From: an uncultured Chloroflexia bacterium
GTDB lineage: Bacteria; Chloroflexota; Limnocylindria; Limnocylindrales; CSP1-4
DNA length: 64,000 bases
NCBI GenBank assembly: GCA_963752475.1
Contig: CAVVYR010000019.1
Location: 141,996 to 205,995, forward strand
Reading direction: 5' to 3'
The notes below the pieces were generated by a model, which made no database searches, was not told the DNA's origin, and saw only the letters and a program-made list of their open reading frames with translations. Numbering within the stretch: position 1 is the first letter of the stretch; the number at the start of each line of letters is the position of its first letter. Below are positions 17,172 to 48,333 of this stretch, piece by piece. Position numbers and translations under genes: made by a program.

Positions 17172-18257
17172 TCACCGTTCTGCAAAGATGTCGCGCAACT
17201 CGAACGGCGCGGTCGTCTCGAGCTGGTCGTAGCGGCAGTCCGCGGGTGTCCTGTCGGGCCGCCACCGCGTGAAGGTGGTGGCGTGCCGGAAGCGATCGCC
17301 CTGCAGATGGTCGTAGGCTACTTCGACGACGCGCTCGGTCCGCAGCGGCTCCCAGGAGAGGTCCTTGCCGCGGTTCCAGCGCGAGGTGGCACCGGGCATG
17401 CGTTGGCCGGTGGCTTCGGCCTCGGCCGACCAGGCTGCCCACTCGCGCCAAGGGTGATCCTCGAGGGCGCGGTCGCGCAATGGCGCCAGCTCCGTTGCCA
17501 GCTCGGCCCGGCGATCCCACTTGAACGATGAGGTCACGCCGACGTGGTGCAGCGTCCCAGCATCGTCGTGGAGCCCGAGGATGAGTGAGCCCACGTGCGT
17601 CCCAGGCCCGTTCTTGTGCCAGCGGAAGCCGGCCATGACGCAGTCGGCCGTGCGCTTGTGCTTGATCTTGAGCATCCGCCGCTTGCCGGGCTCGTAGATG
17701 GCGTCCGCGGCCTTGGCGATGACGCCATCGAGGCCTGCCCCCTCGAAGCGCGCGAACCAGTCGGCCGCCAGGTCCCGCTCCCGCGTCAGCGGCGTCAGGT
17801 GCACGGGTGGTCGGGCCGCTGCCAGCATCTCTTCGAGTCGTGCCCGCCGCTCACTCTGAGGCGTCTCCAGGAGCGACGCATCGTCGAGCGCCAAGAGGTC
17901 CCAGGCCACGAATGACGCCGGCGTCTGCTCGGCGAGCATGTTCACGCGCGACTCGGCCGGGTGGATGCGCAGGAGCAGGGCGTCGAAGTCGAGGGCTCCA
18001 TCGCGTGCGATCACGACCTCGCCGTCGAGCACGCAGCGTCGAGGCAGGTTCGCCAGGAGTGGCTCGGCCAGCTCAGGAAAGTAGCGGTGGAGGGGCTTCT
18101 TGTCGCGGCTCTGGACATACAGGTCGTCGCCATCCCGGAAGATGAGGGCCCGGAAGCCATCCCACTTGGGCTCGTAGAGCCAGCCCTCGCCAGCGGGCAG
18201 GTCCGTGGCCACCTTGGCCAGCATCGGCTGCACGGGCGGAGCGAGGGGCAGGTCCAT
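17172..18257 (-). CDS. ligC: ATP-dependent DNA ligase, LigC type
   Basis: PVQPMLAK, EPKWDGFR (KxDG), LDGEVV, DGVIAK, KIKH and RFRH motifs. Confidence 0.9.
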   Translation of the reverse strand: MDLPLAPPVQPMLAKVATDLPAGEGWLYEPKWDGFRALIFRDGDDLYVQSRDKKPLHRYFPELAEPLLANLPRRCVLDGEVVIARDGALDFDALLLRIHPAESRVNMLAEQTPASFVAWDLLALDDASLLETPQSERRARLEEMLAAARPPVHLTPLTRERDLAADWFARFEGAGLDGVIAKAADAIYEPGKRRMLKIKHKRTADCVMAGFRWHKNGPGTHVGSLILGLHDDAGTLHHVGVTSSFKWDRRAELATELAPLRDRALEDHPWREWAAWSAEAEATGQRMPGATSRWNRGKDLSWEPLRTERVVEVAYDHLQGDRFRHATTFTRWRPDRTPADCRYDQLETTAPFELRDIFAER

Positions 18258-18338
18258 GGTCTGCACGATACCCCGCCCTCGGGGGGCGGACAACGCCAGA
18301 GCGCGGAGCGCCCGAGGCTGCGTGGTAGCCTCGAGGAC

Positions 18339-19067
18339 GTGTCTGCTCCCACCTTCCGAGGCGATCCATACCGCGTGCTCGACGTGCGCCACGATGCTTC
18401 CGCAGATGAGATCAAGGCTCGCTGGCGCGAGCTCGCGCGCGAGCTTCACCCCGACCGTGCCGGTTCCGACGCCAGTGAGCGCGAGCGGCTGACCACGCGC
18501 ATGGCGCGCATCAACGCCGCTTACGACGTGCTCAGCGATCCGATCCGGCGTGCTCGCTACGACAGCACCCCGCACGCGCGGCGTGAGCGATACGCAGAGG
18601 GCCGGCCGCCGGGCTCGGATGACAAGGTCGGGCCGCCGCCACCGCCGCCGACGAAGCCGGTGACCGCACGCTTCGACTTCTCGAACTCGTTCAGGCCACG
18701 CAACAGCGCGGCCATCCGTCAGCCGGGCCGTCACACCACGCTCGCGGGCCAGGCGCCGGTCGATTGGCGTCGGTACCGCCAGGGTCCTGACCTGCGCGCG
18801 AGCGACCCCAACGGACCGGTCCATCGAAGGGTCGATCCGAGGCGCGTGCGTATGCCCAGCCTCGACGAGGCCAGGGCCACGGTGCTCGGCTTCGGGCGCT
18901 TCCACGGCCGGACGCTGGGCGAGGTGGCCGAGAAGGAGCCGACCTACATCGACTGGATCGCCTCCACCATCACCCGCGACCGTGACTTGGTGATGCGGGC
19001 CAAGGTCATCGCCAGCGACCTCGACGCGCGCGGCATCGAACGCCGACCCCGCGTGGCCGAGGCGTAG
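18339..19067 (+). CDS. J-domain (DnaJ-like) protein with a C-terminal FGRFHGRTLGEV...YIDWI domain
   Basis: DPYRVLDV, ELHPD and INAAYDVLSDP..RARYD. TAGCCT box 7 nt before GTG. Confidence 0.85.
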   Translation: MSAPTFRGDPYRVLDVRHDASADEIKARWRELARELHPDRAGSDASERERLTTRMARINAAYDVLSDPIRRARYDSTPHARRERYAEGRPPGSDDKVGPPPPPPTKPVTARFDFSNSFRPRNSAAIRQPGRHTTLAGQAPVDWRRYRQGPDLRASDPNGPVHRRVDPRRVRMPSLDEARATVLGFGRFHGRTLGEVAEKEPTYIDWIASTITRDRDLVMRAKVIASDLDARGIERRPRVAEA

Positions 19068-19111
19068 CCGCCCGCGGTCCGCGCAGAGGTCCCCGAAGAT
19101 CGGGGTCGGAT

Positions 19112-19174
19112 GGAAGAAGGGGGATCGTTCGAGTCGCCCGGCCCGTGCGCTGGCCCGGCGACTCGAGATCGATC
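19112..19174 (-). terminator. Long hairpin plus pyrimidine tract downstream of the putative ncRNA
   Basis: TCGAGTCGCC (19129-38) pairs with GGCGACTCGA (19157-66), closed by GATCG/CGATC, followed by CCCCTTCTTCC on the minus strand. Confidence 0.6.
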
Positions 19175-19198
19175 ACTGCGACGAAGAAGGATGACCTC

Positions 19199-19412
19199 GC
19201 CGCCGCCTGCCTCACCGCTGGCAAGGCCCGGAGCCAGCCGGTTCACCTGTTACTCGACTCGTGACCCGGAGACGGCGATCCGATCTCGTGTGGTGCTGAC
19301 ACGATGCACGGTGTCGGTTAGCGCCACCACGTTGGATGATATGGATCGCGTTTCGTCCCGGGCCCGGTGGTCGACGCCTTCAGGGCCCGTGCCAGCGTCG
19401 AGGGACGACGGC
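19199..19412 (-). ncRNA. Putative rod-shaped ncRNA of ~214 nt with 6S-RNA-like architecture
   Basis: 5' and 3' ends pair over ~25 bp, with nested stems and two large internal loops. G-U pairs favour the minus strand. Promoter lies directly upstream. Confidence 0.7.
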
Positions 19413-19419
19413 AAGGCCA

Positions 19420-19448
19420 ACGTTAAGGGACAGTCCGGGGCTGCACAA
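19420..19448 (-). promoter_or_regulatory. Sigma70-type promoter of the putative ncRNA
   Basis: TTGTGC-N17-TAACGT on the minus strand, 7 nt before the first paired G. Confidence 0.65.
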
Positions 19449-19528
19449 TGGCGCCTTGTTCTGACCCGCCCATGACCATCTGCTTGCCAGTTCTTACGTG
19501 CCTGCCACGCCAGAGCGCTCCCGCCGTG

Positions 19529-20734
19529 CTAGAGCGCCTGCTCCAGGATCTCGGTGAGTTCTTCGTCATTCAGCGCGACCGGGTTGGTGCGCATCGATGA
19601 CCCCGGCGAATCGGCAACTACGACGGGGATGTGTGCGCGTGTCATCTCGAAGGCCGAGAGCGGCGGCACGCTGAGCGTCTTGACCATGTCGTGGAGCGTG
19701 TCAACCAGCGCCACCCGAGCGGCGCCATCACGGATGGTCGACGGCAGGTCGGCCAGGATGCGCCCGGCCTCGGCGTACTTGGGCAGGGCCGGGGAGTCCG
19801 GGACACGCTCGGTGAGCGCGGTGATGTTGGTGCGGATCGTCTGCCACAGGACCGCGCCACAGGCCATGCCGTGCGGGATCGGCAGCTGGGCTCCGAGCGG
19901 GCTGGCGAAGCCGTGGACCGCACCCAGGCCGGCGTTGGCCAGGCACACGCCCGACAGGAGTGCCGCGTAGGCCATCTGACTGCGAGCGGCCGAAGCCTCG
20001 GGGCCGTCGGGATCCGCGTGCCAGGCGAGGAGGCCGCGACGCACGGCGGCGAGGCCATCGCGCGCGAGGGCATCGGTGAAGGGCGTAGCCCGCTGCGAGG
20101 TCAGCGCCTCCAACAGCTGGGTCAGGGCATCGAGGCCGTTGGCGGCGATGAGCGAGCGAGGTGCGGTTGCCAGCAGGTCGGGATCGACCACAGCGTCCGC
20201 AGGGACCATCGACTCGTCGCGGAAGGAGCGTTTGTAGCCCTCCGGCCCGCGCTCGGTCACGACGGCGTTCCGCGTGGCCTCGGAACCGGTGCCGGCGGTG
20301 GTCGGCACGGCAACGACCGGCAGCGCTCCGCCGGGGTAGGGCACGCCGCGACCGACGCCTTCGAGGTGGTCCATCAGCTCCGTCTCGACCGGCAGCAGTC
20401 CGGCGATGGCCTTGGCCGTGTCGAGAGCGGCTCCGCCGCCGACGCCGATGACGACCTCGATGCCTTGGCCGCGGAACTCGTTCACGGGGACCTCGATGTC
20501 CTCCGGTCCGGGCTCGCCGCTGACGGTGGTGGCGCCGACGAGCGTGATGCCGGCGTCGGCCATGCCGGCTTCGAGCTCCGCCCGACGCGGCGAGTCATTG
20601 AAGGAGCGGCCGCCGGTGACGAGAAGCGCGCGCGAGCCGTGGCTCGCGGCGATCGCTGGGACCTTGGAGAACACGCCGGCGCCGAAGGTGATGCGCGGGA
20701 GCCGGCCCAGCCCGAACGCGGGAACGACGTCCAT
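19529..20734 (-). CDS. Iron-containing alcohol dehydrogenase
   Basis: GGGAALDTAK, PTTAGTGSEAT, GLGAVHG and PHGMACG motifs. Confidence 0.9.
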   Translation of the reverse strand: MDVVPAFGLGRLPRITFGAGVFSKVPAIAASHGSRALLVTGGRSFNDSPRRAELEAGMADAGITLVGATTVSGEPGPEDIEVPVNEFRGQGIEVVIGVGGGAALDTAKAIAGLLPVETELMDHLEGVGRGVPYPGGALPVVAVPTTAGTGSEATRNAVVTERGPEGYKRSFRDESMVPADAVVDPDLLATAPRSLIAANGLDALTQLLEALTSQRATPFTDALARDGLAAVRRGLLAWHADPDGPEASAARSQMAYAALLSGVCLANAGLGAVHGFASPLGAQLPIPHGMACGAVLWQTIRTNITALTERVPDSPALPKYAEAGRILADLPSTIRDGAARVALVDTLHDMVKTLSVPPLSAFEMTRAHIPVVVADSPGSSMRTNPVALNDEELTEILEQAL

Positions 20735-21039
20735 CAGGCCTTGTCCGTCGGGATCGACACGCCCTCGTAGCGGTCGGCGTAGCGCTCCTTCGAGGCCAGC
20801 GCCGGGATCTGCTCCTTGAAGGCGGCGTAGTGCGGCGTGGTCTTGTGGAAGGCCGCCGCCTCCTCGTCGCGGTAGACCTCCCAGATAAGGAACTCGTTGG
20901 GGTCCTCGGTCGAGCGGACGATGTCGAAGCGGACGCAGCCGGGCTCGGCCAGCGAGCCCTCCTGGTCGGCCAGGATCAGCTCCATGAACGCATCGGTCGA
21001 CTCGGGCTTGACGAAGATGTGGACTGCCGCGACGAACAT
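20734..21039 (-). CDS. ABM-domain protein (LsrG/putative quinol monooxygenase-like)
   Basis: EPGCVRFD, EVYRDEEAAAFHKTTPHY, SD GAGGAGG. Confidence 0.85.
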   Translation of the reverse strand: MFVAAVHIFVKPESTDAFMELILADQEGSLAEPGCVRFDIVRSTEDPNEFLIWEVYRDEEAAAFHKTTPHYAAFKEQIPALASKERYADRYEGVSIPTDKA

Positions 21040-21089
21040 CGGCTGGCCTCCTCTGGCGCGTACGTGGTCGTTTGGTCGTGCGGAGACGG

Positions 21090-21803
21090 CTAGTGCCGGT
21101 CCCCTGGCTGTCCATAGTAGGCACCTGGGCCGTGCTTGCGGTCGAAGTGCCGGCGCAGGAGCGCCTCCTGGATGTGCGGTGCCTCCGGGTTCAGCGAGAG
21201 CGTGCGTTCCGCCATCGCAGCGACCGCCTCCAGCGCGATGGCGTTGACCACGGCGTGGTCGGCGTCCTTTCCCCAGGTGAACGGTCCGTGAGAGCGAACG
21301 AGCACCGCGGGCATGCGCAGCGCATCTTCGGTCCGGCCCGCGATGGTCTCGATGATGACGTTGCCGGTCTCGAGCTCGTACTCACCCTCGATCTCGGGCT
21401 CGGTCATCAACCGCGAGGTGGGCACGGCGCCGCGGAAGTGGTCCGCGTGGGTGGTGCCGAGGGCGGGGATGTCCATGCCGGCCTGCGCAAAGGCCGCTGC
21501 GAACGAGCTGTGCGTGTGGACCACGCCACCGAGGTCGGGGAAGGCCTGATAGAGCCGCAGATGGGTGGGCGTATCAGAGGAGGGGCGCATCGTGCCCTCG
21601 AGCACGCGGCCGTCGTCGAGGGAGACGACCACGAGGTCCTCGGGCTGGACGGCGTCACAGGCGACGCCGCTGGGCTTGATGACGAGGGCGTTGGCCTCAC
21701 GGTCCACACCGCTCACGTTGCCGAAGGAGAGCGTCACCAGCCCGGCCTTGACGAGATCCGCGTTGGCCTGGGCGACCTGCTCTCGGAGAGCCATGTCGAT
21801 CAT
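21090..21803 (-). CDS. araD: L-ribulose-5-phosphate 4-epimerase
   Basis: FGNVSG, IKPSGV, PSSDTPTH, HTHS, GTTHAD and HFDRKHGPGAYYGQ motifs. Confidence 0.95.
   Translation of the reverse strand: MIDMALREQVAQANADLVKAGLVTLSFGNVSGVDREANALVIKPSGVACDAVQPEDLVVVSLDDGRVLEGTMRPSSDTPTHLRLYQAFPDLGGVVHTHSSFAAAFAQAGMDIPALGTTHADHFRGAVPTSRLMTEPEIEGEYELETGNVIIETIAGRTEDALRMPAVLVRSHGPFTWGKDADHAVVNAIALEAVAAMAERTLSLNPEAPHIQEALLRRHFDRKHGPGAYYGQPGDRH

Positions 21804-47728: not shown

Positions 47729-48333
<605 letters not shown>

Follow-up and report, generated by a model that had tools for sequence, protein, structure and literature searches.

The window, that is, the whole 64,000-nt stretch of DNA from an uncultured Chloroflexia bacterium that was analysed, contained an unannotated gene for a rod-shaped RNA of about 223 nt on the minus strand (19413..19191). 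The gene was located in a gap of 461 nt between an iron-containing alcohol dehydrogenase gene on the same strand, with its stop at 19529, and a convergent gene encoding a J-domain protein, with its stop at 19067. The RNA body began with (U)GCCGUCG and ended with GAGGUCAU. The features of the locus are listed below along the direction of transcription of the RNA, with the basis of each in brackets.

19529..21124, minus strand: iron-containing (iron-dependent) alcohol dehydrogenase gene, upstream neighbour on the same strand (ORF and Pfam)
19420..19466, minus strand: promoter (sequence, and a conserved motif in homologs)
19191..19413, minus strand: conserved RNA body (match to covariance model R1 at 213.2 bits, agreeing blastn conservation edges, and fold)
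19383..19412, minus strand: closing stem, 5' arm, consisting of GCCGUCGUC, CCUC, CGCUGGCA, and GGGCCC (fold and covariation)
19375..19382, minus strand: central asymmetric loop, 5' strand, UGAAGGCG (fold and alignment)
19275..19369, minus strand: apical stem, bulged, with a variable tip (alignments; helices 7-9 covary)
19249..19263, minus strand: most conserved block, CACGAGUCGAGUAAC (invariant or near-invariant alignment columns)
19230..19253, minus strand: central loop, 3' strand, GUAACAGGUGAACCGGCUGGCUCC, with a conserved UAAC (fold and alignment)
19199..19229, minus strand: closing stem, 3' arm, consisting of GGGCCU, UGCCAGCG, GAGG, and GGCGGCGGC (fold and covariation)
19167..19198, minus strand: single-stranded 3' tail, GAGGUCAU with a conserved UCAU and then a variable linker (alignments)
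19108..19166, minus strand: terminator-like hairpin followed by a C/U-rich tract (inverted repeat and downstream fold)
18339..19067, plus strand: J-domain protein gene with an ExoX-like C-terminal domain, convergent neighbour (Pfam, translation, and synteny)

The minimum-free-energy fold of 19412..19199 on the minus strand had an energy of -112.4 kcal/mol (z = -4.45), and none of 200 dinucleotide shuffles was as stable. The helices of this fold included GCCGUCGUC/GGCGGCGGC, CCUC/GAGG, CGCUGGCA/UGCCAGCG, and GGGCCC/GGGCCU, followed by UCGAC/GUCGA, GGCCCGG+GACG/CGUC+CCGGGUC, GCGAUCC/GGAUCGC, and an apical GACAC/GUGUC. All of the helices that an earlier, sequence-only reading had listed for this stretch were present, and the RNA ends that it had proposed (19412 and 19199) nearly matched the conservation edges in relatives, which blastn placed at 19413 (onset) and near 19190 (end). 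The layout was that of a rod composed of a closing stem of about 30 bp, a large asymmetric central loop with a hairpin in its 3' strand, a bulged apical stem, and a variable tip. The tip (approximately 19325-19295) was missing in part of the genus and was replaced in other genera.

Family-wide, the RNA had two invariant parts, a 5'-side GGCGUCGR and a 3'-side CACGAGYCGAGUAAC, with the YCGA of the latter pairing with the UCGR of the former. At this locus, the GGCG of the loop 5' strand and the next U formed the family-wide GGCGU block, and the GUCGA of block CACGAGUCGAGUAAC paired with UCGAC (19374-19370). Single-sequence folds showed the central region as a large asymmetric loop, with 8 nt opposite 24 nt in this genus. 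The 3' strand of the loop contained a small hairpin (CCGG-CUGGCU-CCGG, 19241-19228), the 3' arm of which overlaps the closing stem by 2 nt; the equivalent hairpin in other genera was GGCC-AGCA-GGCC. In the RNAalifold consensus, the invariant GGC of the loop 5' strand was paired with GCC/GCU of the 3' strand in a 3-bp GGC/GCY helix, and a 2-bp mini-hairpin was also placed inside the central loop. Both elements consist of invariant bases, so that covariation speaks neither for nor against them. If the GGC/GCY helix forms, then the rod has a junction at its centre in place of an open bubble.

The promoter proposed in the sequence-only reading was present. It consisted of a sigma-70-type -35 element (TTGTGC, 19448-19443), a 17-nt spacer, and a -10 element (TAACGT, 19425-19420), and transcription likely starts at 19414-19412, 6-8 nt past the -10 element. 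In 34 of 47 homologs, the arrangement TTG-N3-N16-18-TAnnnT ended 3-12 nt short of the RNA start, compared with 0.001 per shuffled upstream sequence, and the -10 element alone occurred in 40 of 47 (0.044 per shuffled sequence). The -35 element is located within a conserved CCATTG (19451-19446), of which CATTG was found in 32 of 47 homologs. A simple scan with a stricter promoter and terminator consensus flagged neither promoter-like nor terminator-like sites at the locus. An additional conserved element was observed about 12 nt upstream of the -35 element (approximately 19463-19458), which reads GGGAC in other genera and CAGAAC here; together with CCATTG, this GGGAC-like element suggests a regulator site or an UP-like element.

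Downstream of the RNA body, the long hairpin with a pyrimidine tract that had been noticed from the letters was confirmed as an inverted repeat with 15-nt arms (19166-19152 and 19143-19129, 93% complementary), followed by the C/U-rich tract. The best downstream hairpin had an energy of -36.4 kcal/mol, and a comparably strong G+C-rich hairpin was found in 47 of 47 homologs. Several genera also contained a U run after the hairpin, as in classical intrinsic terminators. The linker between the conserved UCAU and the hairpin was variable in length (roughly 10-40 nt). The hairpin at 19166-19129 could terminate both convergent genes.

Contigs assembled from RNA libraries (four runs from three studies, of which two runs were from an oligo-dT library) included three that were wholly inside the RNA, with lengths of 204 nt (19196-19400), 158 nt (19217-19375), and 197 nt (19176-19373). 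The whole-length contigs were 95-99% identical to the window. Contigs from the three studies show the presence of the sequence in RNA libraries and cannot show its strand, ends, or abundance; gaps in cover, differing contig ends, and depth figures were not counted as evidence. A further contig of 410 nt from the oligo-dT library (18932-19340) spanned the end of the J-domain gene, the terminator hairpin, and half of the RNA, and could represent read-through, antisense transcription, or DNA carry-over.

Covariation was examined in two alignments, because the 47-sequence alignment was fitted to the covariance model and is therefore biased toward the structure. In this alignment, 94.3% of 1799 cells were standard pairs, and 30 of 41 pairs were changed on both sides, in 237 cells. 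The both-side changes included 15 of 15 pairs in helices 1-3, which form the closing stem, and at alignment columns 65/245, 24 sequences had a G-C pair and 22 an A-U pair. Across 500 column shuffles, none of the five covariation measures was ever reached, and sliding the 3' partners by 1-3 columns as a control reduced pairing to 23-50%. The MAFFT alignment of 28 genus sequences, which was also the source of the tested structure, was 97.1% paired and had 11 of 41 pairs changed on both sides, a result matched by none of 500 shuffles.

The plus strand of the same region folded with a z-score of -4.06, nearly equal to that of the minus strand, and folding alone therefore cannot assign the strand. 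The strand is given by the non-canonical pairs, as the sequence-only reading had argued from G-U pairs on the minus strand that would be C-A on the plus strand. Among the paired cells of the homologs, G-U/U-G occurred 177 times and A-C/C-A 27 times; on the plus strand those G-U pairs would be mismatched, and the folded RNA is thus the minus-strand transcript.

The same count bears on the explanation that there is no RNA gene here and that the locus is instead a plus-strand gene for a small protein (ORF 19110..19475), a repeat or mobile element, or a cis-regulatory leader. A plus-strand ORF of 121 aa does cover the region, on that strand the conserved UCAU becomes ATGA and the -10 box a stop codon, and both strands fold equally well. 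The opposite strand reads ATG at the conserved CAU in 38 of 47 homologs; however, the frame opened by that ATG runs across the RNA in only 13 of 47 and is interrupted by stops or frame changes in the other homologs. Furthermore, length differences between homologs were not multiples of three, and the 121-aa ORF had no Pfam match. A repeat or mobile element is rejected because the region is single-copy in its own genome, and a cis-regulatory leader because the next gene is convergent and no same-strand gene follows at any of the loci examined. With the excess of G-U over A-C pairs (177 versus 27) added, this explanation is extremely improbable.

A search of the own genome (38 contigs, 88.8% complete) with a 371-nt region found it in a single copy, the remaining matches being noise of 15-47 nt. 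The locus is a stand-alone structured non-coding RNA gene, for which the strand, structure, conservation, single copy, and presence in RNA libraries are shown. The claim of an unannotated, independently transcribed structured RNA is thereby well supported by its promoter and terminator, covariation, G-U pairs, single copy, and RNA-library contigs: RNA-library contigs, conservation, and covariation were all found, and many genomic copies were not. Elsewhere in the window, model R1 had one weak match (48018-48125, minus strand, 21.8 bits, E 1.7e-4), which is probably a G+C-rich chance match.

Homologs were common within the genus and the family. All of the genomes compared were metagenome-assembled and incomplete, and the relatives are not independent of each other. 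Using blastn, the 371-nt region was found in 29 of 36 other genomes of the genus and in none of 24 genomes of the small-genome sister family. R1, a covariance model of 28 genus sequences with 217 positions and 41 pairs, matched 43 of 49 genus genomes, as well as 70 of 108 genomes in other genera of the family at E<=0.01, where versions were shorter (164-217 nt); the length across homologs was 164-224 nt. A core model (R2) was built from 43 sequences of many genera and had 139 positions with only 13 base pairs. R2 had exactly one match each in 54 of 61 family genomes, representing 28 of 32 genera (genomes drawn at >=90% completeness), and one match each in 42 of 44 family genomes in another draw. 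The E-values of R1 and R2 are rough because their calibration was shortened.

Outside the family, R2 found no match in 106 genomes of four sister families of the class or in 147 Chloroflexota genomes. At three sister-family loci downstream of the J-protein ortholog and three further family loci, an unfiltered R2 search returned only E>=0.095, and in five sister-family genomes searched at E<=5 the only matches had E>=0.2 and resembled coding sequence. R2 works mostly by sequence; therefore, these misses mark the limit of recognisable sequence and do not show that a counterpart is absent. When a pattern was scanned against one genome per bacterial or archaeal species, at least 119 stretches were detected, and the 80 matches listed all carried Chloroflexota labels, such as Candidatus Limnocylindrales, uncultured Chloroflexia, and Chloroflexota.

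A second, more diverged copy of the RNA was observed in 6 of 49 genus genomes (G004, G034, G035, G008, G071, and G001), with scores of 121-175 bits. A similar diverged copy was the sole match in genome G002 (L029:1502-1720, minus strand, 152.7 bits). It was located between a STAND NTPase/cyclase gene and genes encoding HTH_17 and DUF6036 proteins, with no adjoining J-domain gene, and its promoter boxes were degenerate (CCATGG and CAATCT).

The two neighbours of the RNA gene differed in how far they were kept. The alcohol dehydrogenase gene was retained only within part of the genus, and the neighbour on this side differed between genera. On the other side, 23 of 26 family genomes had the RNA and the J-domain gene on one contig, with the RNA downstream of the gene and convergent (tail-to-tail) with it; two of the remaining genomes had the RNA and the J-domain gene on different contigs, and one had no RNA match. 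The distance between the J-protein match and the R2 match was 42-494 nt.

The J-domain protein (Pfam DnaJ 3.6e-17; ExoX-like_C 9.1e-9) has approximately 242 aa from the putative start codon GTG 18339, and consists of a J domain, a proline-rich basic middle, and the ExoX-like C-terminal domain. Two long ORFs on opposite strands overlap here by about 950 nt, namely 17172..18905 on the minus strand (ATP-dependent DNA ligase domains) and 17961..19067 on the plus strand (J domain). Their Pfam domains do not overlap, and the true ligase and J-domain genes are thus probably divergent, with internal starts near 18300 and 18339. All 26 sampled family genomes encoded a full-length ortholog of the J-domain protein, as did 4 of 4 genomes of the small-genome sister family. 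Matches in other families of the class were limited to the level of the J domain, and no full-length ortholog was recognised there (a tally that includes two genomes flagged as unpublished, G387 and G374). The four sister-family genomes had no RNA beside the ortholog; at the two loci inspected, another ORF followed 5 nt after the J-domain gene. The J-domain protein therefore does not need the RNA.

One alternative is that the RNA binds or scaffolds a protein that is not RNA polymerase, possibly the J-domain protein itself, for which the invariant internal loop (GGCGUCGR...CACGAGYCGAGUAAC) would be the binding site. The most conserved nucleotides are in and around a few bulges and the internal loop rather than in the helices, the J-domain gene adjoins the RNA in 23 of 26 family genomes at 42-494 nt while the other neighbour changes between genera, and the middle of the J-domain protein is basic and proline-rich. 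However, convergent genes are not co-transcribed, and their linkage may result simply from a common terminator and limited space for rearrangement. In the sister family the ortholog is kept (4 of 4) with no RNA beside it, and the Pfam search detected no RNA-binding domain in the J-domain protein. A partner of this kind is rather unlikely.

The same convergent arrangement could also serve base pairing, with the RNA acting as an antisense regulator of the 3' end of the J-domain mRNA via the shared terminator, or as a trans-acting small RNA with a seed in its 3' tail. Strict convergent synteny is consistent with such a role, as are the single-stranded tail, which carries the conserved UCAU and separates the rod from the terminator, and the one RNA-library contig that spans the end of the J-domain gene and half of the RNA. 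On the other hand, the tail beyond UCAU was not conserved between genera, the conserved body does not overlap the J-domain gene, and about 200 nt of covarying rod with an invariant internal loop would be left unexplained. We regard a base-pairing regulator as highly doubtful.

Four RNAs usually have a single gene in a bacterial genome, each with its own promoter: SRP RNA, RNase P RNA, tmRNA, and 6S RNA. SRP RNA, RNase P RNA, and tmRNA were all found elsewhere in the own genome above the cut-offs, which rules out a diverged form of any of them at this locus. The new RNA resembles SRP RNA (4.5S) in being a rod-shaped, housekeeping-type RNA with a conserved internal loop, but a canonical small SRP RNA is already present elsewhere in the genome (70.2 bits versus a cut-off of 40). 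It also resembles the bacterial Y RNA that binds Ro60 in that its 5' and 3' ends pair to form a stem and that it has a conserved bulged site, which in Y RNA binds the protein. In contrast to Y RNA systems, no TROVE (Ro60) gene (PF05731) was found in the own genome (88.8% complete) and no Rfam Y RNA or YrlA model matched, and a Y RNA was rejected.

The sequence-only reading had described the RNA as 6S/Ms1-like, and Rfam covariance searches returned no 6S or other family match on it. At the gathering score, no family (including RF00013, the 6S model) matched in the whole window. With Rfam 15 at E<=10, RF00013 was absent from 18900-19700, where the only match was Rothia-sucC at 19158-19191, which was taken as noise (E 0.6, plus strand). 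RF00013 was likewise absent from the RNA at 20 homolog loci at E<=10, the four weak matches there all being off the RNA. In the own genome RF00013 matched nothing at E<=10, and it was found in none of the 61 genomes of the family draw at >=90% completeness. Among 151 Chloroflexota genomes, RF00013 found 6S RNA in 34, none of them in the class of this RNA, and R2 matched none of those genomes. Detection differed family by family, with 9/9, 5/5, and 4/4 in some families and 0 in many others, and many Chloroflexota lineages may hold unrecognised 6S-type RNAs. Since RF00013 missed 117 of 151 Chloroflexota and only 4-7 of 14 control genomes were positive, the absence of a 6S match is weak evidence.

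The 6S/Ms1-like label would fit the RNA in its architecture, one-per-genome spread, and occurrence where canonical 6S RNA was undetected; the RF00013 model gave no match at E<=10. Like 6S RNA, the new RNA is a covarying rod of 164-224 nt in which a large central loop separates the closing stem from a bulged apical stem. The folds of six canonical Chloroflexota 6S RNAs showed the same layout, including a hairpin in the 3' strand of the loop adjoining the closing stem. The new RNA also has its own housekeeping-type promoter and one copy per genome with occasional second copies. Two 6S genes in some bacteria are mentioned in PMC7726162. Unlike 6S RNA, it shared no motifs by eye with the canonical Chloroflexota 6S RNAs, its loop is strongly asymmetric in this genus (8 nt versus 24 nt) with invariant nucleotides that could pair, and it is tightly linked to a J-domain gene. 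To our knowledge, tight tail-to-tail linkage with a J-domain gene is no feature of 6S RNA. Six canonical 6S genes of other Chloroflexota had no J-domain gene within 1.5 kb, so that nothing argues for positional homology, and the linkage is the one strong observation that a 6S-like role leaves unexplained. The 6S family is defined by function, and together with the lack of a match to the curated model this is why the rod RNA is not filed as a 6S member.

A related explanation is that the RNA is Ms1-like, that is, a rod-shaped partner of the polymerase core, bound in the absence of sigma and not copied into product RNA. The passages of PMC9130861 that concern Ms1 describe it as an RNA that binds the RNA polymerase core and occurs in a lineage with no detectable 6S RNA. 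The new RNA has the same rod architecture, with what may be a central bubble, in a lineage where 6S was not detected, and its primary transcript, with linker and terminator hairpin, would have approximately 290 nt, near the approximately 300 nt of Ms1. As in the account of Ms1 in those passages, sequence-based models traced homologs only within one family, and linkage with a neighbouring gene aided finding them (PMC9130861). However, the same source, as far as it treats Ms1, places it only in Actinobacteria, with extra 5' and 3' hairpins and linkage to a HAD hydrolase gene (PMC9130861). The new RNA is from another phylum and has another neighbour; a 3' hairpin (the terminator) exists, but there is no 5' hairpin because the closing stem begins at the first nucleotides. 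Furthermore, no Rfam family matched at E<=10, although Rfam 15 may lack an Ms1 model. An Ms1-like RNA in this sense is very unlikely.

With three of the once-per-genome RNAs accounted for, 6S RNA undetected, and a size and layout like those of 6S RNA, a 6S-like promoter mimic is the likeliest function. We tentatively propose, with slightly less than even confidence, that the rod RNA is the 6S-like RNA of this lineage, a promoter mimic that binds RNA polymerase. Synthesis of pRNA is outlined in PMC9130861 and PMC8876501 as rearranging 6S RNA and thereby freeing the polymerase, and for the rod RNA we infer polymerase binding, a template site, and a release mechanism. The gene would be transcribed from the minus strand with the housekeeping sigma factor, starting at about 19413 and ending at the hairpin 19166-19129, with the conserved body reaching to 19191. 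The rod, with its central loop open, would mimic an open promoter and occupy the RNA polymerase holoenzyme. The polymerase would then make a short product RNA with the 5' strand of the loop as template, upon which the rod RNA would be released. Copying of the product RNA would unzip the top of the closing stem, so that the overlapping 3'-strand hairpin could form; the hairpin would be favoured once the top of the stem is open, because two nucleotides of its 3' arm are shared with the closing stem.

A more far-reaching proposal would make the RNA a third, independently evolved class of polymerase-regulating rod RNA beside 6S and Ms1, restricted to a single soil/sediment family of uncultured Chloroflexota and functionally coupled to the J-domain co-chaperone, for example by chaperone-assisted loading or release of an RNA-polymerase complex. 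We consider this proposal quite unlikely.

The host group of the RNA consists of Chloroflexota that are known only from metagenome-assembled genomes. In the literature searched, no regulatory RNA was described for these organisms, and no paper contained both "Limnocylindr" and "6S RNA". The well-defined, one-per-genome RNA family, which has a clear structure and is present in RNA libraries, provides a new model for annotators. In a lineage in which the standard model fails, it also offers experimenters a concrete candidate for the 6S function that is missing. If polymerase binding by the RNA is true, then the sequence diversity of promoter-mimic RNAs would exceed what current models capture, and an approach combining synteny and structure could recover such RNAs in the Chloroflexota that lack a detectable 6S RNA (117 of the 151 sampled).
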